From an uncultured Erysipelotrichaceae bacterium (GTDB lineage Bacteria; Bacillota_I; Bacilli_A; Erysipelotrichales; Erysipelotrichaceae), in the NCBI GenBank assembly GCA_964457525.1, contig CAYWGS010000038.1, forward strand, positions 1 through 13,190: DNA of 13,190 bases, written 5' to 3'. The notes below the pieces were generated by a model. It was not told the origin of the DNA. It made no database searches and saw only the letters and a program-made list of their open reading frames with translations. Shown one piece after another: positions 634 through 13,170 of this stretch. The stretch's first letter is position 1. Each line of letters opens with the position of its first letter. A program made the position numbers and the translations under genes.

Positions 634-2319
634 ATGAAAGAATCTATTACCATTGTTTTATCGGGTGAGGCTGGTCAAGGACTACAGACCGTTGAAGAAT
701 TTTTAGTCGAGTCACTTACCCATGAAACATACGTCTTTTCTTCTAAAGAAGTAATGAGTCGAGTTAGGGGAGGTAATAACTCGGTTGAAATTCGTATATC
801 GAATCACCCCATTCAGGCATTACGCTATACGATCGATTATTTATTTCTCTTTAACAATCATTCATTAGAAAGACTCGTTCCTCGTTTACACGATAAAACA
901 CAAATTATCGGTGAGGCATCTTTTTTAACGGATGAACAAAAGAAACAGTTTAATTTTACTGAAATGAACTTTATTGAAATTGCGAAACAAGCTGGCAATC
1001 GTATGTACTTTAATGTTGCGATGTTTGGCTTTATTTCAGGCTTACTCAATAGTTCTAAATCATTTGCACATCAAACCATTACAAAACGATTTATCCGCAA
1101 AGGTGAAGACGTTGTGAGTGGTAACATTCAAGCATTTGATCTAGGGTATGAACTCGCACAAGGATCCCCAATCAAACTTGATTTCAAACCTAATGATAAC
1201 TTTAAGCCACTCAAAGTTATGACTGGGAATGATGTATTAAGCATTGGAGCCTTAGCCGGTGGTGTAAACTATCTTGCGGCATATCCAATGTCTCCAGGAA
1301 CAACGTTAATGCAACTTCTGGAAGCTAAAACCAATGAATTTGGTGTTCTTGTGGAACAAGCTGAAGATGAAATCGCTGCATTAAACATGGTTATTGGCGC
1401 TTGGTATGCAGGTGCTCGTGCTCTAACCACAACCTCTGGTGGAGGTTTTGCCTTAATGACTGAAGCAGTTAGTTTAGCAGGCATTACAGAAAACCCTGCC
1501 GTTATTCATGTTGCACAAAGACCTGGACCTGCTACAGGACTTCCAACACGTACCGAACAAGCTGATTTAAATCTTGTCTTATATGCTGGTCATGGTGAAT
1601 TCCCACGTATCATCTTCGCGCCAGGTAAACTAGCAACAGGTGTTGAACTCATGGCACGTGCATTCCATTTAGCGGATAAGTATCAAGTTCCTGTATTCAT
1701 GTTAAGTGATCAATATTGGTTAGAATCCTTAGCTCAAACGGATACAATTGTACTACCAAGAGACTATGCACAAAATCATATTGTAGAAACAACTCGTGAC
1801 TATAAACGTTATGCGTTTGACGCTAGTGGAATTTCTCCAAGAGGTATTCCAGGCTTTGGTAAGGGATTTGTCAAAGTTGATAGTGATGAACATGATGAAG
1901 AAGGATTACTCACAGAATCCTTTGATATGCGTGTAAGAATGCATGAGAAACGGTTAAACAAATTCAATCTAATGAAAGAAGATTTATTAGAACCAACGAT
2001 TGAAGGAAACCCAGATAAGAAGAATTTAGTCATTGGATGGGGATCAACCTATGGTGTAATCTCTGAAATTGTCTCTGATAATCCTGAGTTTACACATGTC
2101 CATTTTGAACACATCTATCCACTTCCTGATTCAGTTGAAGACTTATTAAGAAATGCAGATAAGATTATCGTTGTGGAAAATAACGCAACTGGTCAATTCG
2201 CAAATCTATTACAAATGACATATGGAATTAAACTCAATCAACGTATTCTAAAGTACAATGGAGAACCGTTCCATGTGGATGAGCTTGAACAAAAGCTAAA
2301 GGAGAAAGCACATGACTAA
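634..2319 (+). CDS. 2-oxoacid:acceptor (ferredoxin) oxidoreductase, alpha subunit (fused gamma+alpha domains, KorA-type)
   Basis: 561 aa. An N-terminal gamma-type domain (ITIVLSGEAGQGLQTVEEF) is followed by the alpha domain (AAYPMSPGT, TTTSGGGFALM, HVAQRPGPATGLPTRTEQ). SD AAGGAG at 624-629. The 3' end overlaps the beta-subunit start by 8 nt (ATGACTAA). Confidence 0.9.
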   Translation: MKESITIVLSGEAGQGLQTVEEFLVESLTHETYVFSSKEVMSRVRGGNNSVEIRISNHPIQALRYTIDYLFLFNNHSLERLVPRLHDKTQIIGEASFLTDEQKKQFNFTEMNFIEIAKQAGNRMYFNVAMFGFISGLLNSSKSFAHQTITKRFIRKGEDVVSGNIQAFDLGYELAQGSPIKLDFKPNDNFKPLKVMTGNDVLSIGALAGGVNYLAAYPMSPGTTLMQLLEAKTNEFGVLVEQAEDEIAALNMVIGAWYAGARALTTTSGGGFALMTEAVSLAGITENPAVIHVAQRPGPATGLPTRTEQADLNLVLYAGHGEFPRIIFAPGKLATGVELMARAFHLADKYQVPVFMLSDQYWLESLAQTDTIVLPRDYAQNHIVETTRDYKRYAFDASGISPRGIPGFGKGFVKVDSDEHDEEGLLTESFDMRVRMHEKRLNKFNLMKEDLLEPTIEGNPDKKNLVIGWGSTYGVISEIVSDNPEFTHVHFEHIYPLPDSVEDLLRNADKIIVVENNATGQFANLLQMTYGIKLNQRILKYNGEPFHVDELEQKLKEKAHD

Positions 2320-3160
2320 TTTCAACTTTAATCATGATATTGATATGGCATGGTGTCCTGGATGTGGTAACTTCCCAATCCGTGACATGATTATTGAAGC
2401 ACTCAATGAACTTAACCTTGATCCATCCCAAGTTGTCTTCTCATCCGGAATCGGTCAAGCCGCAAAAATGCCACAGTACATTGATTCCAATTACTTCAAT
2501 GGACTTCATGGTCGTGGCTTATCCGTCGCAAGTGCAATTTCAGCAGTCAACCCTGAACTTGTGGTAATTGCGGAAGGTGGTGATGGTGATATGTATGGTG
2601 AAGGTGGTAACCACTTAATTCACAACATTCGTCGTAATCCAAACTTATTACACATTGTCCATGACAACATGGTTTATGGTCTTACTAAAGGGCAAGCAGC
2701 CCCAACATCCCCTGTTGGACTTGTGACGCCAACTCAGATTGATGGTGTTTACAATGAACCCATCAATCCTATGGCTTTAGCATTATCCCTTGGTGCAACT
2801 TTCGTAGCACGTGGTTTTAGTGGTGACAAACAAAAGACAAAAGAATTGATTAAACAAGCTATTCAACACAAAGGCTATGCGATTCTTGATATCTTCCATC
2901 CATGTGTCACCTACAATAAGATCAATACCTTTGCATGGTTCAAACGTAATACTTACTGGTTGGATGAATCATATGATAAGACAAACCTAGAATCTGCTCT
3001 TAAAGTAGCACTTGATATGGATAAATTAGCGTGCGGTATCTTGTACCAGAATACAAATACACCAGATTACCATACACGTAATCCATTCTATAAAGGTGAT
3101 CTTACCCCATTCTATAAAAAGACGAGAGATCTAGATCAAGTTGAAGCATTGCTTCAATAA
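2312..3160 (+). CDS. 2-oxoacid:ferredoxin oxidoreductase, beta (TPP-binding) subunit (KorB-type)
   Basis: 282 aa. Motifs: WCPGCGN (CxxC), GGDGD...NHLIH...YGLTKGQ TPP/Mg motif, and HPCVTYN. Translationally coupled to the alpha subunit. Substrate (2-oxoglutarate, pyruvate or other) cannot be told from sequence alone. Confidence 0.9.
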   Translation: MTNFNFNHDIDMAWCPGCGNFPIRDMIIEALNELNLDPSQVVFSSGIGQAAKMPQYIDSNYFNGLHGRGLSVASAISAVNPELVVIAEGGDGDMYGEGGNHLIHNIRRNPNLLHIVHDNMVYGLTKGQAAPTSPVGLVTPTQIDGVYNEPINPMALALSLGATFVARGFSGDKQKTKELIKQAIQHKGYAILDIFHPCVTYNKINTFAWFKRNTYWLDESYDKTNLESALKVALDMDKLACGILYQNTNTPDYHTRNPFYKGDLTPFYKKTRDLDQVEALLQ

Positions 3161-5160: not shown

Positions 5161-5757
5161 TTATTTTAATTTAGCCGCAACTTCTAATAGACGCTTAACT
5201 TGGTGTTCAACCGCTGGACGAACATTTTCAACCATCTTACCTTCTTGGTTAATTGTTACGCTGGTACCATAAGGGTTACCACCTGCTAAACCAACGGATG
5301 CGTCTGTATAACCAGGTGTTACAACAATTGCTCCCCAGTGGAACATGCTTGTGTATAAGCTTAGAAGTGTTGCTTCTTGACCACCATGTGGGTTTTGTGC
5401 AGAAGTCATAGCACTCACTGCTTTATTAACTGTTTTACCTGTAGCCCAGATACCACCTTGAATATCAATGAATTGTTTAAATTGTGAAGGAACATTCCCA
5501 AAACGAGTTGGTACTGCGAATAATACTGCATCTGCCCAAACGATATCATCAGAGTTCGCTACTGGAATATCTTTGGTTGCTTCTTGGTTTGCCTTCCAAC
5601 CTGGTTGTGAATCAATAACTGCTTGTGGAGCTAATTCTTGAATTTGACGAACACGTACTTCGGCTCCTAATTTTAACGCAGCTTCTTCAGCCCATTTCGC
5701 CATTTGAACGTTTGATCCATATGTACTATAGTAAATAATCGATAATTTTGTAGACAT
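5161..5757 (-). CDS. wrbA: NAD(P)H:quinone oxidoreductase, type IV (WrbA, flavodoxin-like fold)
   Basis: 198 aa. Motifs: IIYYSTYGS, PTRFGN, QGGIWATG, HGGQE and GGNPYG, which line up with E. coli WrbA motifs (LYYSMYGH, PTRFGN, GGLW, GGGQE, GGTPYG). SD AAGGAG (5767-5772, minus strand). Confidence 0.88.
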   Translation of the reverse strand: MSTKLSIIYYSTYGSNVQMAKWAEEAALKLGAEVRVRQIQELAPQAVIDSQPGWKANQEATKDIPVANSDDIVWADAVLFAVPTRFGNVPSQFKQFIDIQGGIWATGKTVNKAVSAMTSAQNPHGGQEATLLSLYTSMFHWGAIVVTPGYTDASVGLAGGNPYGTSVTINQEGKMVENVRPAVEHQVKRLLEVAAKLK

Positions 5758-5773
5758 TAAACTTTTCTCCTTG

Positions 5774-5790
5774 TTACTTTTTGTAAGTAA
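5774..5790 (-). promoter_or_regulatory. Dyad operator box 1 (TTACTT-N5-AAGTAA; contains TACT-N7-AGTA), predicted YodB-type repressor site over the wrbA transcription start
   Basis: Perfect 6-bp inverted arms. A 15-nt core ACTTTTTGTAAGTAA (5776-5790) is repeated exactly at 5835-5849. It lies between the predicted -10 and the SD of wrbA. Confidence 0.5.
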
Positions 5791-5794
5791 TTAG

Positions 5795-5823
5795 AGTATA
5801 TCGAATGTCTATTGTATTATCAA
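5795..5823 (-). promoter_or_regulatory. Predicted sigma-A-type promoter of wrbA
   Basis: The minus strand reads TTGATA (5823-5818), a 17-nt spacer, then TATACT (5800-5795). It is about 25 nt upstream of the SD. Confidence 0.45.
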
Positions 5824-5832
5824 TCAATATGC

Positions 5833-5849
5833 TCACTTTTTGTAAGTAA
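5833..5849 (-). promoter_or_regulatory. Dyad operator box 2 (TCACTT-N5-AAGTAA), upstream of the wrbA -35
   Basis: Exact 15-nt repeat of the box 1 core, 59 bp away from it. One arm mismatch. It sits between the yodB-like terminator and the wrbA -35. Confidence 0.45.
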
Positions 5850-5850
5850 A

Positions 5851-5874
5851 TAAAAACACCTTATTTCTAAGGTG
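5851..5874 (-). terminator. Intrinsic terminator of the YodB-like regulator gene
   Basis: CACCTTA (5857-5863) / TAAGGTG (5868-5874) with a 4-nt loop. On the minus strand it is followed by TTTTTA. It starts 1 nt after the TAG stop. Confidence 0.6.
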
Positions 5875-6165
5875 CTATAAGTTTTTATCTGCAAATGTTT
5901 GTATGGAGTCTAAGGACTGATTTAAATCATGTCCAAGTTGTGTAAGATGATAATGATGATCAATATGTTCAATTAGACCTTCAACTTCCAACTCCTTCAA
6001 TCTTTCTGTTAATACTTTATCACTACAATTGTGTAAACAACTAGCTAGTTCAGTGAAGCGCATTGGTTGATCTTGAAGGCATCTTAAAATAAGCCCATTC
6101 CATCGTTTACCGAGCCATTTAAATACTTTTTCATACTTTGGACAAAGTTTATAGTCTACTTTCAT
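5875..6165 (-). CDS. yodB: HxlR/DUF24-family winged-helix redox-sensing regulator, YodB-like
   Basis: 96 aa. CPKYEKVFKWLGKRWNGLILRCL...MRFTEL...SDKVLTERLKELE closely parallels B. subtilis YodB (CPKMESAFSLLGKRWNGLI...KRFKEI...SQKMLAERLKELE, from memory). The N-terminal Cys8 aligns with the sensing Cys6 of YodB. Confidence 0.85.
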   Translation of the reverse strand: MKVDYKLCPKYEKVFKWLGKRWNGLILRCLQDQPMRFTELASCLHNCSDKVLTERLKELEVEGLIEHIDHHYHLTQLGHDLNQSLDSIQTFADKNL

Positions 6166-6260: not shown

Positions 6261-6737
6261 ATGATTGAACAAGCCTTTACATTAATTCGTACAAAGAAAT
6301 CTATTCTTCAAGCATCTCTATTTTTTATTGTATTTTTAATTATCTATACCCTTATTGATCGTAATAATTTAAGTTATACTGAAATGAGAAATCAATATGG
6401 TAATTTCTTAGTTTATACCAACATTTCTCTTAATATCGTTATGGCATTATTGAGTTCTCTTATGTTAATTTTAAGTACTGCAAATGCGACACTTAAAGGC
6501 AAAGAATCGATAGGTTCAAACTTATCCTTTGTGTCTGTTTTATTTGGTATCTTAACCTATGGCTGTACACCGTGTGTAATTGCCTTCTTTGGGAGTATCG
6601 GTATTGCTTTCTCAGTAATTGCCCTACCTTTAGCTGGCTTACCCTATAAATTTATTTCGTTATTGCTTATTGTGATTGGATTAGGTTGGACGTATTATGA
6701 AATTAAATATGGAACGTGTAAGGTAAAACAACAATGA
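6261..6737 (+). CDS. Hypothetical polytopic membrane protein with an intramembrane CxxC (GCTPCV)
   Basis: 158 aa, about 4 TM. The Cys-Thr-Pro-Cys motif lies at the start of a TM helix. SD AAGAGG (6249-6254). Divergent from the yodB-like gene. Overlaps the next gene by 4 nt (ATGA). Confidence 0.65.
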   Translation: MIEQAFTLIRTKKSILQASLFFIVFLIIYTLIDRNNLSYTEMRNQYGNFLVYTNISLNIVMALLSSLMLILSTANATLKGKESIGSNLSFVSVLFGILTYGCTPCVIAFFGSIGIAFSVIALPLAGLPYKFISLLLIVIGLGWTYYEIKYGTCKVKQQ

Positions 6738-7054
6738 AAAAGATCAGAATCATCGCATGGATTTCAACGCTTATTATGTTATTTATGATTGTATTCTCGC
6801 TTGTTACTGGAGACTTCTTTGAACAAGGTTCTATCCTTATGAGTCTTGTATGGGGTCAGATGAGTTTAGTTGATTTATATGTTGGATTTGCATTAGTTTA
6901 TGTTTGGATCTTCTATAAAGAAACAAAATTACTACCAAGAATTATCTGGGCTATTCTATTAATTGTGACTGGAAGTCTCGCAACTGCTCTCTATATTTTA
7001 ATTGAAAGTTATCGAGCTAAAACAATTGAAGATTTACTAATCGAAAAAAAATAG
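6734..7054 (+). CDS. Hypothetical small 3-TM membrane protein (possibly DUF1475-like)
   Basis: 106 aa, translationally coupled to the upstream gene. The WGQMSLVDLYVGFALVYVWIFY segment is the only conserved-looking stretch. The family assignment is a weak recollection only. Confidence 0.6.
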   Translation: MKKIRIIAWISTLIMLFMIVFSLVTGDFFEQGSILMSLVWGQMSLVDLYVGFALVYVWIFYKETKLLPRIIWAILLIVTGSLATALYILIESYRAKTIEDLLIEKK

Positions 7055-7076: not shown

Positions 7077-7904
7077 TTATCCTTGATCCTTTAAAATATA
7101 TTGAATAGCGACACAACCTGGTCCACCTTGAGTAATCATAACCGGTGAAAGTTCTAATATATCCACTTCAATATTTTGAATACGTTCTTTAATTCGCTTA
7201 AACGCTAGTTCCGCAACTTCTAACTTAAACGCATGCGATATATAAATTTTATGTGTATAACTTACACCATTTTCTATCATACGATCAATGATTTGATCAA
7301 TCGCATTCGTCCATGTACGACCAGACCCAAACTTCTCTAAACGTTCACTTCCTTCCACATGCATAACGATTGGTTTTAATTTTAAGAATCCACCTAAAGT
7401 AGCAGCTAAGGTCGTAATACGTCCACCACGTTTTAAATAATCAAAATCAGTTGGCATTAAGAATGATTGACAGGAAGATAAACACTTATTCATTCTTTCA
7501 ACTATTTCTTCAACTGTTTTATCCTTAGATAAAGACGCCGCAAGTTCTACAAGGTATTTTTGAGTCCCTGCCAATGTTTTAGAATTAAATAGTGTAATCC
7601 CTTCGGTATACATTGAGTTTAGAATACCTAACGCTGAATCATAGGTTGCGCTTAATCCCTTTGTCATCGTAATATGCAACGCATTCTTAGTACGTTCATA
7701 TACTTCCATGACATCTCCAATAGCAGGTTGTGAAGAATTAGGAATCGCTTTCTTAACCATTTCAACGAAATCAGCGGATTTTAATTCAAAATAATCTCTA
7801 TAATTCTTACCTAAAATCGCAACTTGTAAAGGTAAAAGTTCAATATCAAGTTCTAAAGCTTGAGCTTGGCTCATGAGAGAGCCTGTGTCTGTGATAATTT
7901 TCAT
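7077..7904 (-). CDS. DegV family fatty-acid-binding protein
   Basis: 275 aa. The N-terminal MKIITDTGSLMS...ELDIELLPLQV, the internal SSQPAIGD, and the length are typical of the DegV/EDD fold. SD AGGAGA. Confidence 0.88.
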   Translation of the reverse strand: MKIITDTGSLMSQAQALELDIELLPLQVAILGKNYRDYFELKSADFVEMVKKAIPNSSQPAIGDVMEVYERTKNALHITMTKGLSATYDSALGILNSMYTEGITLFNSKTLAGTQKYLVELAASLSKDKTVEEIVERMNKCLSSCQSFLMPTDFDYLKRGGRITTLAATLGGFLKLKPIVMHVEGSERLEKFGSGRTWTNAIDQIIDRMIENGVSYTHKIYISHAFKLEVAELAFKRIKERIQNIEVDILELSPVMITQGGPGCVAIQYILKDQG

Positions 7905-7972: not shown

Positions 7973-8602
7973 ATGATAGTTACAATGAAAAGCACACATT
8001 TAGTTGACCTCAAAAAACTTCAATATACAAACCCACAAACTCAAGAAACAATCTTTGGATTTAGTCAAGAATGGTATAAAACAAAATGGCAAAGACTCTC
8101 TGGATGTGGACCTACTTCCGCAAGTAGCCTTATTTACTATGCTTGTTATAATGAGACAGAAATGGATCAAAATAAAGCATTAGAACTTATGGAAGTGGTT
8201 TGGAATTATGTAACTCCAGGTATGGGTGGCGTTTATAAACGTTCCATGTTTACCAATGGTTTAAAACGCTATCTTAATAAACACGACATACAAGCAGAAA
8301 TTGAATCCATAGAAATTACGAAAAATAAAAAGACTCGCATGAGTCTTATCGATACAGTAAACTTTATTGAAAATGGATTAAGTAAAAATGCTCTTGTGGC
8401 ATTTCTCAATCTCGATAATGGAGATGAAAAGAAACTCGATGAATGGCACTGGGTTGTCATAAGTGGTATCGATGTTCATGCACAACACGAGCAAGTATTC
8501 GTCAATATCATCGATGATGGTAAACTCTTTGCGATTGATTTAAACCTATGGCTTAACACAACCAAAAGAGGTGGAGCCTTCGTTTACTTTACTTTGACTT
8601 AA
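7973..8602 (+). CDS. Hypothetical cytoplasmic protein with a papain-like (C39-like) Cys/His signature
   Basis: 209 aa with no signal peptide or TM segment. Q40-x4-C45 in WQRLSGCGPTSA (Cys codon 8105-8107), H159 in EWHWVVISG (8447-8449), and D181/D182 in NIIDDG match the order Gln-Cys-His-Asp/Asn of papain-fold peptidases. Start uncertain (ATG at 7973 or 7985; both have weak SDs). Confidence 0.55.
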   Translation: MIVTMKSTHLVDLKKLQYTNPQTQETIFGFSQEWYKTKWQRLSGCGPTSASSLIYYACYNETEMDQNKALELMEVVWNYVTPGMGGVYKRSMFTNGLKRYLNKHDIQAEIESIEITKNKKTRMSLIDTVNFIENGLSKNALVAFLNLDNGDEKKLDEWHWVVISGIDVHAQHEQVFVNIIDDGKLFAIDLNLWLNTTKRGGAFVYFTLT

Positions 8603-9647
8603 TTTTCTTCATAAATAAATCAGAATCAAAACTATGCAACAAGGCTTCATCCAATGTGATGAGGTCTTTTTGATAATAATCCATTAACATTGAATCCATA
8701 CTAATCATTCCTTCACTGGATGCGATGGTATTATTCAATTGATGTGTCTTCGCTTCACGGATTTGATTACGTACTGCTAGACTATTCGTCATAACTTCAA
8801 AGATAGGGACTAAATCTCCATCTTTCTTACGAATAAGTTGTTGGGACACAACAGCTTCTAGGACCATTGATAATTGAAGTCGAATTTGTGTTTGTTGGGA
8901 TGCTGGAAAAACATCAATCATACGATCAATGGTATTTGCAGCACCTAAAGTATGTAGAGTTGTAAAAACCAAATGACCTGTTTCTGCCGCTGTTATAGCG
9001 AGTGATATGGTTTCTAAATCACGCATTTCACTGATGAACAATACATTTGGAGCTTGACGTAGTGCTGATTTAAGCGCAGCTGCACTTGAATCACAATCAC
9101 TTCCAATTTCTCGTTGGGAGATAATACTCTTATCATGTCGATGTAAGAATTCAATTGGATCTTCAATTGTTACAATATGACCCGAACGATTCTTATTGAT
9201 AAGATCTAAGAGTACAGCTAAAGTAGAGGATTTACCTGCACCTGCGGGGCCACTGATAATAACTAATCCTTTATTTAATTCCGCAAAACGTGTAATTTCT
9301 TTTGGAATGGATAATACTTCAGCTTTCGGTATATCAAACTGAACAATACGAATAACTGCAGCTAAAGAATTACGTTGATGATAAACATTCACTCTTAAAC
9401 GAGCTAAATGAGCAACAGAGAAGGAAAAATCATCATCTCCTTTTTCTTCTAATCGATGCATACTACGATTATTCGCACATCGATAAAGATCATCAACTAA
9501 AATCCGACAATGTTCAGGCATTAATATTTCATCTTCTAATCGAATAACTTTATTCTTAACCTTATAGGCAATTGAAGATCCAGCCACAACAAAGATATCC
9601 GACGCATTCATTTCAACCGCTTTTCTTACGATTTCTTGCACATCCAT
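8589..9647 (-). CDS. pilT: Type IV pilus retraction-type ATPase PilT
   Basis: Motifs and how they match P. aeruginosa PilT (from memory): Walker A GPAGAGKSS; Asp box IVTIEDPIEF; Walker B LFISEMRD; His box TGHLVFTTLHT; DFSFSV...RLRVNVYHQRN; TIDRMIDVFP; and LAVRNQIRE (AIRNLIRE motif). Start moved to the ATG at 9647 (MDVQEIV), which has GGAGG 5 nt upstream. The track start at 9659 lies inside that SD. Confidence 0.88.
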   Translation of the reverse strand: MDVQEIVRKAVEMNASDIFVVAGSSIAYKVKNKVIRLEDEILMPEHCRILVDDLYRCANNRSMHRLEEKGDDDFSFSVAHLARLRVNVYHQRNSLAAVIRIVQFDIPKAEVLSIPKEITRFAELNKGLVIISGPAGAGKSSTLAVLLDLINKNRSGHIVTIEDPIEFLHRHDKSIISQREIGSDCDSSAAALKSALRQAPNVLFISEMRDLETISLAITAAETGHLVFTTLHTLGAANTIDRMIDVFPASQQTQIRLQLSMVLEAVVSQQLIRKKDGDLVPIFEVMTNSLAVRNQIREAKTHQLNNTIASSEGMISMDSMLMDYYQKDLITLDEALLHSFDSDLFMKKIKSK

Positions 9648-9648
9648 A

Positions 9649-10068
9649 CTAACCTCCATATACGGGATCCCCGTCTTGCGAATAATCTTGATTGATACCA
9701 GAGCTTAATCGATATTCGATGATTTCTAATCGAATTCGATCTTCTTTTTTAATGATCGCCTTTATATTTAATCTTAAGTTATTATATTCTTTGCTTATAG
9801 TAATTATTTGATTAAGTTCATCAAACTCTACGTTATCCAAAGAATTATAATCCTTCAAATTTAATCTCTTTTCTAATTCAATTATTTCAATTTCCATATC
9901 CCTTTGTAAGGTATAAGTATCGACAAGGATTTCATTACCTCGTTCAATTGAATGCTTGATATTTAAGGTATTTAAGAGACTTAATGTCGCAAAACTAAAT
10001 ATCAACACAACAATCAATACCGTAAGTATGGTAGGAACACCAAATAGACTAAAGTGATTTCTTTTCAT
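9649..10068 (-). CDS. Small N-terminally anchored protein, ComGG/PilX-like minor pseudopilin candidate
   Basis: 139 aa from the ATG at 10068 (SD GGTGG upstream; the track TTG at 10098 is unlikely). The N-terminus MKRNHFSLFG-VPTILTVLIVVLIFSF resembles ComGG-type N-termini (Gly followed by a hydrophobic helix, no Glu5), followed by a coiled-coil-like segment. Stop is 1 nt before the pilT ATG. Confidence 0.45.
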   Translation of the reverse strand: MKRNHFSLFGVPTILTVLIVVLIFSFATLSLLNTLNIKHSIERGNEILVDTYTLQRDMEIEIIELEKRLNLKDYNSLDNVEFDELNQIITISKEYNNLRLNIKAIIKKEDRIRLEIIEYRLSSGINQDYSQDGDPVYGG

Positions 10069-10070
10069 AC

Positions 10071-10439
10071 TTATTCTACCACCTTTACAATATCCCAAGA
10101 TAAGAGTTCTTCATTTGTATTAGATCTTAAAACAAGATGAATAAGTTGATAATTTTCTTTATTTTCAATCTCTAGTTTTAACTCATACGAGCCTTGTGTT
10201 GTTTGATGATTTCCATCTTGATCAAAATAATAAAATAGTTCTTTAAGTTCATAATTTGGATTTTGAATTGATTCAGATAGTAAAACCATCTTTTCAGACA
10301 TCTTCATAAGTGCTTGGTTTCTTTGGTGCTGAGTCATTGTCCGAATAAATAATGTATTCGCAACACTTAATGAAATAACTAAGATGAATAAAGCGAGGAT
10401 TAACTCATAAACAAACAATCTCTGTGAACGATTTTTCAT
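10071..10439 (-). CDS. Small N-terminally anchored protein, degenerate pseudopilin-like (Glu at +5 retained, Gly at -1 replaced by Arg)
   Basis: 122 aa. MKNRSQR-LFVYELILALFILVISL aligns with the canonical KG-FTLIELLIALxIL. SD GAGGA. 4-nt overlap with the upstream gene. Confidence 0.45.
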   Translation of the reverse strand: MKNRSQRLFVYELILALFILVISLSVANTLFIRTMTQHQRNQALMKMSEKMVLLSESIQNPNYELKELFYYFDQDGNHQTTQGSYELKLEIENKENYQLIHLVLRSNTNEELLSWDIVKVVE

Positions 10440-10882
10440 GGTCTATTCCTCATCGATCGTATTGTAAAAGTTAGTTCTTGTTTATTCCTCAAAGAATCAA
10501 GATATGAAATGTAAACTTGATTTTGATCTTCTTCATATTTCAAATTTGATAGTAAAGCGATTCTTTGTCCTGATGATTCAAGAATGGTATTGACCTCAGA
10601 GACCTGTTCAACCAAGTAACCATCTTCTTCATAGATAAGTGTATAGTAGCCCTCATGTTCAATCATAAGTAGATTATCTTGCACACTAAATCCATTATTC
10701 ATATCAGCTTGATTAAGACGATGATTGAAATAATGAAGTATTGTTCTCTGATTCAATGATTGATTGGATGTCTGATTCATGGATTGATAGAAATCTGCCC
10801 CTAAGTAAAGAGAGAATATCAAAGTGAGCGCAAACATACCTAATAAAATCCATTGAATCAAAGGATTAATCACGCGTTTCAT
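10436..10882 (-). CDS. Small N-terminally anchored protein, minor pseudopilin/ComGF-like candidate
   Basis: 148 aa. MKRVINPLIQWILLGMFALTLIFSLYL anchor followed by a beta-rich region. Strong SD GGAAGGGGG. 4-nt overlaps on both sides. The function call rests on operon position and architecture only. Confidence 0.4.
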   Translation of the reverse strand: MKRVINPLIQWILLGMFALTLIFSLYLGADFYQSMNQTSNQSLNQRTILHYFNHRLNQADMNNGFSVQDNLLMIEHEGYYTLIYEEDGYLVEQVSEVNTILESSGQRIALLSNLKYEEDQNQVYISYLDSLRNKQELTFTIRSMRNRP

Positions 10883-11175
10883 TGAGAATCCCCCTTCCTA
10901 AATACGGTAATATCAGGTCGGATATTGGACGCAAAACTCTTATAACTCACATAATAGAGTCGATTATCCACAATCAATCCATAATTCTCTATTAAATAAT
11001 CTAACTTAGCCGGATAAAAACCCTCTTGTGCATAACACAAGTTCAAGGATCTTTGAATGGCCATTTCAACTTGTTCCATCTGATATTCAATATTGCGTTG
11101 GTTAATCATCTCTGCAATTGGAATACTTGAAACAAGCAGTAATACCGTTAATAGACTAAGTAGCATTCGTTTCAT
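10879..11175 (-). CDS. ComGC/GspG-like major pseudopilin candidate with a non-canonical N-terminus
   Basis: 98 aa. After the anchor MKRMLLSLLTVLLLVSSIPIA comes EMAIQRSLNLCYAQEGFYPAKLDYLIE. This matches the helix plus G-x-Y-P pattern of GspG/ComGC globular domains (compare ALELYRLDNGRYPTTEQGLQAL). It sits immediately after the platform gene, as comGC does. SD AGGA. Confidence 0.45.
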   Translation of the reverse strand: MKRMLLSLLTVLLLVSSIPIAEMINQRNIEYQMEQVEMAIQRSLNLCYAQEGFYPAKLDYLIENYGLIVDNRLYYVSYKSFASNIRPDITVFRKGDSQ

Positions 11176-11176
11176 T

Positions 11177-12202
11177 TTAGAGTCCTAACGTCTGCATTGC
11201 TTGTAAGAGTGGAATAATAAGAGCAAGTAGAACAGATCCAACACCGATTGCTAGGATGAATAGTACAAGTGGCTCAATCCGATTAAATACCTTTTCAATC
11301 CATTTGTCTGATTCTAATTGTGCTTCTTTACTTACTTGTTTTAATGTATTCTCAAGATTACCTGATTTATAAGCGATACGAATCGAGTTTTGAGTAAAGG
11401 ATGGATAGATCTTTGATTTTAGTATTAAATCGATAATATTATCATTACTCTCTAACTTAACCTCTTTCAAGTGACGATATAACTCACGCTTAGGCAAATA
11501 ATCAAATATTAAATCTAACGCAACTTGTTGATTCACACCCGATTCATTCATGATTTCTACTAAATACGTAAAATACGCTAAATCTGCCTTATAAGCGCTC
11601 TTCGGAATAATGTTAAGAATCGAATCGATCACATCATTCTTTTCAGGATGATTCATCTTTTGAGCTGAAGTAAAAATTGCCCATATAACAAATAGAACCA
11701 AAAGAACTAACCCTACTGTTGAAAAGATATTTAAAATAGATAGTAAAATATTAATCCATACTGGATAAGATCCACCGAGATTAATAAAGATTGATTGAAA
11801 GATGGGTAGGATGATTAGACTCAGAACATTCAATATAATGATTAACAAACTAAATAGGATAAATGGCATCGTAAGTAATTCTTTAAGTGCTTCACGAATA
11901 TTCGATTTACGAGAATAGAAAAGAGATAAATGTTTTAAGATCGATTCTTCCTTACCAATTTGAACCGCAATTTCCAAACTCGAGATTAATAATTGATCAA
12001 ACTGATTAACCCCAGCTAATGCATTCATCAAATTATGATCCTTCTGATATAGTGTCAAGATAGAAGCGTAATTAATCTCTGAATCTTGTTCAGACAGTAA
12101 AATTAATCCTTCTTCAACAGGTAAGCCATTCTCATAAATCATGGCAAACTGTGTGCAGAATACCGCATGAAGTGAATCATTTAGTTTCGTATTTTTCTTC
12201 AT
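11177..12202 (-). CDS. Type II secretion system F family platform protein (PilC/ComGB-like)
   Basis: 341 aa with two cytoplasmic repeat domains and three TM segments. The TM1-TM2 loop is FQSIFINLGGSYP (compare F..mF...g..LP). The C-terminal EPLVLFILAIGVGSVLLALIIPLLQ is typical of GspF. SD AAGAGGAAA overlaps the upstream stop. Confidence 0.8.
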   Translation of the reverse strand: MKKNTKLNDSLHAVFCTQFAMIYENGLPVEEGLILLSEQDSEINYASILTLYQKDHNLMNALAGVNQFDQLLISSLEIAVQIGKEESILKHLSLFYSRKSNIREALKELLTMPFILFSLLIIILNVLSLIILPIFQSIFINLGGSYPVWINILLSILNIFSTVGLVLLVLFVIWAIFTSAQKMNHPEKNDVIDSILNIIPKSAYKADLAYFTYLVEIMNESGVNQQVALDLIFDYLPKRELYRHLKEVKLESNDNIIDLILKSKIYPSFTQNSIRIAYKSGNLENTLKQVSKEAQLESDKWIEKVFNRIEPLVLFILAIGVGSVLLALIIPLLQAMQTLGL

Positions 12203-12213
12203 ATCATTTCCTC

Positions 12214-13143
12214 TTAATAGTAATCCTGATTTTGATATTCTCCATCATATGAACCCATGGAATCAAAAGTAGGATCGACTCTTCCCCATTTGTCTGTTTC
12301 AAAATAGACACTTGGATTAATCCAACCTGTATCCTTAATATAAACCTCTACCCAAGCATGATATCCTTGTTTAACATAACCAGTCACAACGCGTGTTGGG
12401 ATATGTTGAACACGTAACATAGCACTCATAAGTGAAGCATAATCGAAACAAATACCTTTTTCTTCTAAATAGGTTTCATCAATAATCGGTAGGATAAACT
12501 TAGTTTGAGCTATTTCAGCTTTATCATAATCGTAATCAATATTTTGGATAATGTATTGATAAATCTCATAAACTCGCTCAATTTCACTATCCGCTTCTTG
12601 AGTTAATTCAAATGATTTCATAATCGCTTGTGTTTCTTTATTATAGTTAACGATTTGATTTGGATATAAATAGGCTGTTGTTTCATCAACCAATTCAATA
12701 TCTATTTTAGTAGAAGCACTAACAACATAAGTGTTCCCATCTTTATTTTTAAGTAGTCGAATTGAGTAGACTCCATCTCCCATTTGAAGCGGAACAATCA
12801 CATACTCATTCGACACAAGTGTATACGTATAAACTGAATCCCCTAATGATACTTGAGCTTTAAGTTCAGAGTTACTATCAGGTGATAGTACACTGATATA
12901 ACCATATTCTGCATTAGAATAATCAATCACAAACCCATTCGATTCATAAACTAACTGTCCTGGTTGAGATGGCCATAATATCTCTTCAAAGGTATATTTC
13001 TTAGAACTTTCTCCCTCTGTAGGGTACTCTTCAAATACATTTACATTGGAGTTTGAACACGACGCAAGAAAAACAATACTTAATAATATCAAGTAAAACA
13101 AACGATTTTTTCGTACATATTTTGTGTTTTTTTGTTGGGTCAT
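12214..13143 (-). CDS. Transglutaminase-like (papain-fold) lipoprotein
   Basis: Start set at the ATG at 13143 (MTQQKNTKYVRKNRLFYLILLSIVFLASC). Lipobox L-A-S-C with Cys codon 13057-13059. Transglutaminase-core triad: GICFDYA (Cys codon 12448-12450), GYHAWVEVY, RVDPT. The track TTG at 13167 has no SD and overlaps a -10-like element. Confidence 0.8.
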   Translation of the reverse strand: MTQQKNTKYVRKNRLFYLILLSIVFLASCSNSNVNVFEEYPTEGESSKKYTFEEILWPSQPGQLVYESNGFVIDYSNAEYGYISVLSPDSNSELKAQVSLGDSVYTYTLVSNEYVIVPLQMGDGVYSIRLLKNKDGNTYVVSASTKIDIELVDETTAYLYPNQIVNYNKETQAIMKSFELTQEADSEIERVYEIYQYIIQNIDYDYDKAEIAQTKFILPIIDETYLEEKGICFDYASLMSAMLRVQHIPTRVVTGYVKQGYHAWVEVYIKDTGWINPSVYFETDKWGRVDPTFDSMGSYDGEYQNQDYY

Positions 13144-13170
13144 ATTCTTTTCTTTATTATAGCACAACCA

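Follow-up and report, generated by a model that had tools for sequence, protein, structure and literature searches.

What are four adjacent pilin-sized proteins that carry the architecture of a type IV pilin signal and lack its cleavage motif? The defining components of type IV filament (T4F) systems are pilins that carry a cleavable G/FxxxE signal, and surveys of such systems (MacSyFinder models, PilFind) rely on that signal. The proteins in question are encoded in contig CAYWGS010000038.1 of an uncultured Erysipelotrichaceae bacterium, a stretch of 13,190 nucleotides (nt) referred to here as the window. In gene order, we call them P1 (98 amino acids [aa]), P2 (148 aa), P3 (122 aa), and P4 (139 aa). 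On balance, our analysis favors the interpretation that they are pilin-like subunits of a conserved T4F-like cassette of Bacillota, which would form a short, mostly uncleaved pseudopilus with a tip resembling GspI, GspJ, and GspK and working together with a transglutaminase-like enzyme.

A preliminary description of the window had noted that all four proteins open with a short basic leader and a hydrophobic stretch of about 20 residues and that the full G(-1)/F(+1)/E(+5) motif is missing from each of them. Both observations agreed with our rereading of the N-termini, and the same architecture was seen in the orthologs from 40 cassettes. P1 (MKR-MLLSLLTVLLLVSSIPIA) has neither Gly nor Glu5, and P2 (MKRVINPLIQWILLGMFALTLIF) is likewise devoid of both features in the window. 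In P3, Glu(+5) is present (E12) and Arg occupies position -1; in P4, the sequence LFG/VPT (G-VPTIL) provides the Gly and no Glu5. P4 is the only window protein with Gly(-1) and P3 the only one with Glu(+5), and each of these two residues is kept family-wide. The statement that no start codon restores a canonical motif also held, as in every open reading frame (ORF) the start used is the first to follow an in-frame stop, and neighboring ORFs overlap or lie at most 11 nt apart. The longer mechanical P4 ORF, from TTG at 10098, adds only MGYCKGGRIS, and products of 98, 148, 122, and 139 aa were also picked by gene callers on 23 independent metagenomic contigs that carry the exact window P2 protein, with identical gene calls. 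The reported absence of the motif is therefore confirmed, because the N-termini are as described and no alternative start yields a G/FTLxE motif. None of the four proteins, nor their close orthologs, scored above the curated cut-off of N_methyl (Pfam PF07963) or TIGR02532 (NCBIfam). One detail did not survive: the GspG-like "G-x-Y-P" signature ascribed to P1 corresponds to a local alignment with Escherichia coli GspG whose score of 25 was equalled by 361 of 1000 shuffles.

The four-gene series is more than a chance arrangement, as it is found again in 40 non-identical cassettes that keep position-specific residues. The cassette is a fixed seven-gene unit in the order transglutaminase-like lipoprotein, platform, P1, P2 (a DUF4860 protein), P3, P4, and PilT-family ATPase. 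P1 followed by exactly three small ORFs and then a PilT-like ATPase was found at 52 loci, of which the 40 non-identical ones, from Erysipelotrichaceae and Clostridia, constitute our census set. The platform gene lies immediately upstream of P1 in 39 of these, and all 35 cassettes with enough flank have the transglutaminase-like gene on the same strand. An exception in arrangement is the cultured clostridial Acetoanaerobium noterae DSL2 (L018), which has the cassette-type transglutaminase copy at the 3′ end and, further upstream, encodes another transglutaminase-domain membrane protein of 724 aa. The same synteny surrounds a P2 ortholog with 51% identity in a complete Erysipelotrichaceae chromosome of 2.0 Mb, and remote cassettes with P2 at 16-26% identity (L016 and L017 at 22-26%) keep the gene order; the cassette was also found on a human-faecal scaffold (L019). 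A metagenome scan with the P1 alignment returned 343 relatives, including human-gut and termite-gut contigs, from which 80 loci were kept. An exhaustive profile search yielded 905 DUF4860-like clusters (50% identity) at E<=1e-3, and a genome scan with a narrow DUF4860 alignment returned 3 loci only. Sequence identity among the cassette proteins ranked in the order ATPase > transglutaminase-like protein and P1 > platform and P2 > P3 and P4. In the paper library that was searched, we found no published description of the cassette, of DUF4860, or of a transglutaminase-like gene linked with PilT, PilC, and pilins.

Comparison of the 40 cassettes revealed that the class III signal of P2 to P4 is eroded position by position, not at random. 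Gly was counted where it stands immediately before a span of 16 or more uncharged residues, and the acid was counted where an acidic residue bounds the membrane span. By these measures, P4 has Gly before the span in 40/40 cassettes and the acid in 1/40; P3 has the acid, always Glu, in 40/40 and Gly before the span in 2/40. The putative -1 residue of P3, five before the Glu, is Gly in the same small proportion (2/40), and the non-Gly residues in the other 38 comprise R, S, Y, D, H, N, and Q, among others. Prepilin peptidases require Gly, rarely Ala, at this position. P2 is intermediate, with the acid in 12 of the 40 cassettes and Gly before the span in 7, and the lineage of the window has lost both. 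A wider set of 146 DUF4860 representatives kept D/E in 78 proteins, often within [RK]H.[IV]D, and Gly five residues before it in 7 only. Many DUF4860 proteins (representatives P0196-P0344) carry [RK]-H-x-[IV]-D just before the span, a recurring non-canonical replacement of G-F-T-L-I-E. Alignment of orthologs for a different N-terminal motif revealed no conserved alternative cleavage motif across the P1 to P3 families.

P1 follows another pattern, being devoid of class III signal features in every lineage. It has the acid in 0/40 cassettes and Gly before the span in 9/40, and all of its 12 invariant columns (C47, Y48, A49, E51, G52, Y54, P55, Y60, L61, Y65, N84, and P87) fall within residues 47-87, with none in the membrane helix or anywhere in residues 1-39. 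Its ectodomain is highly conserved (CYAxEGxYP...YL...Y...N(I/L)xP), whereas the N-terminal membrane helix is variable. Major pilins are conserved most strongly in their membrane helix; the conservation pattern of P1 is the reverse of this.

We have high confidence that P2, P3, and P4 descend from genuine prepilin-type proteins with a class III signal, because the motifs of the A. noterae orthologs, the positional profile matches, and the predicted fold of P2 all point in this direction. The P3 ortholog of A. noterae begins with MNKRNG/FTLIEIIISIG and passed both N_methyl (28.4 bits; cut-off, 21.2) and TIGR02532 (23; cut-off, 16.3). Its P2 ortholog reads ...KKNNKG/VSKVEVILVMIL (NKG/VSKVE) and matches DUF4860 with an E value of 8e-27, and its P4 ortholog reads ...KTRTG/SSSILVILLVV. 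In hhalign comparisons, the window families matched their positional counterparts from A. noterae at 98.7% (P1), 98.5% (P2), 30% (P3), and 70% (P4; E, 4e-5), with off-diagonal values of at most 2%, and the LFVYE segment of window P3 was aligned residue for residue with FTLIE of A. noterae. At its N-terminus, the P3 family profile also matched E. coli GspJ (probability, 74%; E, 2.8e-5) and, to a lower degree, GspH (32%); when the family profiles were compared with single E. coli GspG to GspM sequences, this N-terminus gave the only signal, all other values being <10%. Pfam and NCBIfam searches at E<=10 with all P1, P3, and P4 family members returned no pilin family except faint GspI and ComGG_2 matches for P4; the faint ComGG_2 match (E, 0.077) and faint ComGE matches occurred in relatives only. 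In profile searches of P1 to P4 against PDB sequences, the sole thematically relevant match was the TcpA pilin, for P1 (E, 0.56). The proposal in the preliminary description that these proteins are pilin or pseudopilin derivatives with unusual, non-canonical class III signals is thus supported for P2 to P4 by sequence and, for P2, by the predicted fold, and the origin of P1, a pilin-shaped protein according to its model, is uncertain.

AlphaFold2 predicted "lollipop" structures for both P1 and P2. The P2 model (predicted local distance difference test [pLDDT], 87.9) comprises a 61-residue helix (H2-62) followed by 8 strands, and its top match in Foldseek was XcpW/GspJ (5bw0_C; probability, 0.99; E, 0.08; TM, 0.47), followed by 3ci0_J and 3nje_B. 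The DUF4860 assignment (PF16152) is also precomputed on relatives of P2. The P1 model (pLDDT, 87.5) comprises two helices (H2-51 and H58-65) and two strands forming a hairpin, a pilin-like shape; P1 matched no Pfam family. At the other end of the subunit series, the C-terminal tail of P4 is conserved (NQDYSQDGDPVYGG, the last 14 residues in the window; QDY[ST]Q[DN]G..[VI][YWF].G across close orthologs). This tail (window 9649-9700, minus strand) is nearly invariant in Erysipelotrichaceae-type cassettes, and distant ones end in an aromatic-x-G-like form (VWQGN, LYQGN, DIWMG). With its many Gln and Asp residues, it could serve as a Ca2+ site or as a substrate for a transglutaminase.

The mechanical components place the cassette apart from the competence systems. 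The ATPase exceeded the cut-off of the PilT/PilU model TIGR01420 (388.3 bits; cut-off, 319.1) and failed the ComGA model (128.1; cut-off, 300). Its AIRNLIRE-type motif is LAVRNQIRE in the window and NIRNLIRE in the A. noterae ortholog, which scored 441 bits. The platform protein fell below the cut-off of all specific NCBIfam models, including GspF (89; cut-off, 424) and ComGB (67.6; cut-off, 240), and the window proteins showed no match to the ComGC, ComGD, and ComGF models. The label "Com/T4P module" from the preliminary description is not supported, given the failed ComGA and ComGB models, the PilT-family ATPase, and a transglutaminase-like gene that is always in the cassette.

No prepilin peptidase is encoded with the cassette. 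In the cassette flanks (98 loci, 929 kb), phmmer with E. coli GspO returned 0 matches for an A24 peptidase, and there was no plausible GxGDxK peptidase ORF, the few candidates being the ATPase, the transglutaminase-like protein, and other soluble proteins. A peptidase elsewhere in the genome remains compatible with these data: MSH loci likewise lack a peptidase and borrow one, and peptidases are often encoded apart and shared between systems (Denise 2019).

The preliminary description had pointed to two papain-fold neighbors, of which one is solid. The transglutaminase-like lipoprotein matched Transglut_core (E, 8.5e-24), and its catalytic triad of Cys (GIC[FY]DY), His (YH[AS]W), and Asp ([VLM]D[PS]TF) shows no change across 10 divergent cassettes. 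The protein ends in Tyr in 35/35 cassettes, as part of a conserved Y-x5-Y-COOH tail that may act as a docking strand. The N-terminal part of the protein is a beta-rich domain with invariant IDYSN, YTY, and LYPNQ (window and orthologs in L007 and L012-L019). To judge from its lipobox, anchor, or signal peptide, the enzyme acts outside the membrane. The second neighbor, a 209-aa protein, gave a sub-threshold match to Peptidase_C39_2 only (E, 0.04; 14.9 bits; cut-off, 24), with an SGCGP motif, and no PDB relative of it was found. Its gene converges on the ATPase gene, overlapping the ATPase 3′ end by 14 nt, and occurs only in Erysipelotrichaceae loci with the downstream DegV/DUF1475/HxlR synteny (L001-L007, L014), not in L012, L013, and L015-L019.

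How might such subunits work? GspK/PilX-type tip pilins lack Glu5, and its absence is normal for subunits of the GspK/ComGG type. P4, P3, and P2 may accordingly correspond to GspK, GspI, and GspJ in a tip or initiation complex, an assignment suggested by the fact that the tip-type P4 keeps Gly and lacks Glu5 while the next subunit, P3, keeps Glu5. In initiation complexes of this kind, the N-terminus that processing exposes on a subunit is neutralized by the Glu of the subunit below. Because the Gly of P4 is invariant, this subunit may still be cleaved, possibly by a housekeeping prepilin peptidase, and its new N-terminus would then be neutralized by the invariant Glu of P3. P1 to P3 would stay uncleaved and be tethered to the membrane by their basic leaders; such tethering would permit at most a short pseudopilus, a stub or piston, and no long pilus. 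The earlier suggestion that the subunits are used uncleaved thus remains the best reading for P1 to P3, with P4 as a possible exception. The single PilT-type ATPase might drive the stub through the PilC-like platform, and the stub might deploy, position, or activate the transglutaminase-like enzyme in the wall, as the strict linkage and the high conservation of both this enzyme and the P1 ectodomain suggest. A bolder version, to which we would assign a minor chance, is that the cassette represents a new functional class in which the PilT-type ATPase and the PilC-like platform drive a mostly uncleaved, membrane-tethered stub of I/J/K-like pseudopilins, having no true major pilin, and this stub mechanically switches on or deploys the surface transglutaminase-like enzyme, docked by its invariant C-terminal Tyr strand.

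Several points weigh against the pseudopilus interpretation. The pilin assignment of P1 is based on shape only: Foldseek returned nothing significant for its model, with PilA4 and PilE as partial matches of low root mean square deviation only, and its best local alignment to E. coli GspG, which does fall on the expected alpha1C/loop region, is a motif-level resemblance. The Foldseek E value of P2 is only 0.08, and the role of the transglutaminase-like enzyme is drawn from strict linkage only. Furthermore, we know of no proven precedent for a PilT-type ATPase as the sole assembly motor.

The strongest challenge to uncleaved subunits comes from peptidases that are encoded at a distance. If a prepilin peptidase of relaxed specificity, encoded elsewhere, accepted all four proteins as normal substrates, the cassette could build a retractile pilus or a Com-like pseudopilus with P1 as the major subunit, a scenario that we consider doubtful. 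The sharing of peptidases between systems (Denise 2019) agrees with it, as do the separate, vertically inherited comG locus reported for Erysipelotrichales (PMC12786226) and the genome of A. noterae, with its 4 T2SSE-type loci and canonical P2 and P3 motifs. Among the small subunits, moreover, P1 is conserved best, and it fits ComGC or GspG in size and position. However, the -1 residue of P3 is non-Gly in nearly all cassettes, and to our knowledge no known prepilin peptidase tolerates R, S, Y, D, H, N, or Q there; the acid is missing from every P1, the N-terminal helix of P1 is its least conserved part, opposite to major pilins, and the ComG models fail. The variable P1 helix without class III features could also be taken to mean that the proteins are not filament subunits at all. 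They would then be bitopic assembly or alignment proteins, analogous to PilN, PilO, GspL, and GspM, that anchor the platform and the surface enzyme, as the preliminary description had also considered; the lack of Gly(-1) in most P2 and P3 members and of any match to a major-pilin hidden Markov model (HMM) agrees with this. We nevertheless regard it as unlikely. The A. noterae orthologs of P3 and P2 have perfect prepilin motifs, the former passing the prepilin models, and the Glu of P3 and the Gly of P4 are invariant. In PilO and GspM, a single membrane helix is followed by a ferredoxin-like periplasmic domain; the predicted folds of P2 (helix plus all-beta, with GspJ/XcpW as top PDB matches) and P1 (helix plus small helix/hairpin) differ from this. 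The hhalign probability against GspL and GspM was at most 0.3%, and a Pfam scan of the window and family proteins for PilN and PilO gave no match.

Two further explanations involve neighboring genes. Processing of the small proteins by a protease linked to the cassette, either the transglutaminase-like lipoprotein or the C39-like neighbor, was raised by the preliminary description and would be in keeping with an always linked enzyme that has an intact Cys-His-Asp triad and with a neighbor showing a faint Peptidase_C39_2 match and a GCGP motif. The class III leader sits on the cytoplasmic side of the membrane, so that a lipoprotein that, by its inferred topology, acts outside would be badly placed to remove it. 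The C39-like gene is on the opposite strand and restricted to one lineage, and the P1 to P3 families offer no alternative cleavage motif; we therefore judge this explanation to be improbable. A dedicated system for secreting or displaying a giant cadherin-repeat adhesin appears more improbable still. The adhesin (1152-1719 aa; Cadherin/Big_9 repeats), encoded outside the window and just upstream of its 3′ edge, directly precedes the cassette in L001-L007, L014, and L015, which would suit such a role. However, this protein (L001, 2529-7688; also L007, L014, and L015) carries a Sec signal of its own and is anchored in the membrane near its C-terminus, with a conserved cytoplasmic tail of ~90 aa; a GC-rich hairpin with a T-run, resembling a terminator, separates it from the transglutaminase-like gene; and it is absent from L012, L013, L016, L017, L018, and L019. 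The adhesin and the C39-like neighbor were also considered as core parts of the cassette and rejected, as most cassettes lack either.

Should the bolder version hold, the machine would serve the chemistry of the cell wall or of surface proteins as a transmembrane actuator, in Gram-positive anaerobes of gut and digester, rather than being a device for pilus formation, secretion, or DNA uptake. We found no described system with a strict link to an intact transglutaminase-like enzyme, nor one with a PilT-type ATPase as its only motor. Surveys based on the cleavable signal are blind to this widespread cassette, and T4F diversity in Gram-positive anaerobes is therefore under-counted. The erosion pattern, with Gly retained only in the tip-like subunit and Glu only in the next one, can be viewed as a natural experiment on the contacts that are essential for starting assembly. 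A cultured carrier, A. noterae DSL2, makes experiments tractable.

The features of the cassette in the window are compiled in Table 1. The seven minus-strand genes are contiguous, overlapping or separated by no more than 11 nt, and P1 to P4 are translationally coupled; the series contains no convincing internal terminator or promoter in the window.

Table 1. Positions of the cassette genes, two diagnostic codons, and the adjoining C39-like gene in the window
Feature	Position	Strand	Remarks
Transglutaminase-like (papain-fold) lipoprotein, first cassette gene	12214..13167	-	309/317 aa; likely start ATG at 13143 (309 aa); lipobox LASC
PilC/GspF-like inner-membrane platform, divergent	11177..12202	-	341 aa; Pfam T2SSF, E=3.2e-16
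P1, bitopic, N-terminal membrane helix plus small ectodomain	10879..11175	-	98 aa
P2, DUF4860 (PF16152) member, pilin-shaped in its model	10436..10882	-	148 aa; 31.1 bits (cut-off, 25)
P3, small minor-pilin-like protein	10071..10439	-	122 aa; MKNRSQR-LFVYE-LILALFIL
P3 Glu12 codon GAG, equivalent to pilin Glu+5	10404..10406	-	read from the sequence; invariant column
P4, GspK/ComGG-type pilin-like protein	9649..10068	-	139 aa from ATG; MKRNHFSLFG-VPTILTVLIVV
P4 Gly10 codon GGT, putative -1 position	10039..10041	-	read from the sequence; invariant column
PilT/PilU-family hexameric ATPase, sole T2SSE-type ATPase of the cassette	8589..9659	-	352-356 aa; TIGR01420, 388.3 bits
C39-like neighbor	7973-8602	+	209 aa, cytoplasmic; sub-threshold Peptidase_C39_2 match

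The rest of the window consists of housekeeping genes at 634-3160 (plus strand), 5161-6165 (minus), 6261-7054 (plus), and 7077-7904 (minus), which encode the alpha and beta subunits of a 2-oxoacid:ferredoxin oxidoreductase, an FMN reductase with an HxlR regulator, two small membrane proteins (one of DUF1475), and DegV; this housekeeping synteny is kept in related genomes. Elsewhere, winged-helix regulators of the SARP/BTAD type adjoin several clostridial cassettes (L016, 4117-5379; L019, 809-2062 on the minus strand; L017, 12548-13699), and in L016 a sortase gene lies 3′ of the ATPase gene. Two records appear to be misfiled. The 11.9-kb L019 (MT836211.1) is filed as "UNVERIFIED Bacteriophage sp." and carries the bacterial cassette and an enolase gene, and the 2.63-Mb L018 (NZ_CP154629.1) is filed as "plasmid pTPELB2" of A. 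noterae and is of chromosome size.

Among known systems, the pseudopilus of the type II secretion system (T2SS) shares with the cassette a platform gene followed by a G-sized small subunit and minor-pilin-like genes. P4, as the last subunit, keeps Gly(-1) and lacks Glu5 in the manner of GspK, the predicted fold of P2 resembles GspJ/XcpW, and the product of the cassette is likely a short, non-surface filament. Unlike the T2SS, the cassette resides in a monoderm host and lacks a secretin, GspC, GspL, and GspM; its ATPase belongs to the PilT family rather than to GspE, P1 to P3 have no Gly(-1), no Gsp-specific HMM reaches its cut-off, and a transglutaminase-like partner is obligatory. The ComG system resembles the cassette in its monoderm host, its one ATPase and one platform, and a peptidase encoded elsewhere, as well as in a first subunit of 98 aa followed by subunits of 120-150 aa, the last of which lacks Glu5 as ComGG does. 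It differs in that the cassette fails the ComGA, ComGB, and ComGC to ComGG equivalog models, has a PilT-like ATPase at its 3′ end, encodes four pilin-like proteins instead of five, and begins with a subunit devoid of the class III motif. With the PilT/PilU proteins of type IVa pili, the cassette ATPase shares the TIGR01420 assignment and the AIRNLIRE-type motif, whereas it is the sole motor, with no PilB-type partner in the cassette; as the only ATPase, it is therefore not a pure retraction motor for a filament built by another cassette-encoded ATPase. PilY1/PilC tip adhesins dock on PilK-type minor pilins via a C-terminal beta-strand (Ellison et al. 2026 preprint, PMC12918778). The transglutaminase-like protein is comparable as a large extracytoplasmic protein with a conserved C-terminal tail that is genetically tied to an I/J/K-like set of minor pilins, although it has no sequence or fold relation to PilY1, being an enzyme with a papain-like triad and not a beta-propeller adhesin. 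DUF4860 (PF16152), of which P2 is a member, is now placed as the second pilin-like gene of the cassette. Collectively, judged by its ATPase, its platform, and the ancestry of its subunits, the cassette is a member of the T4F superfamily, and it would work in a way similar to a pseudopilus of the T2SS or ComG type.

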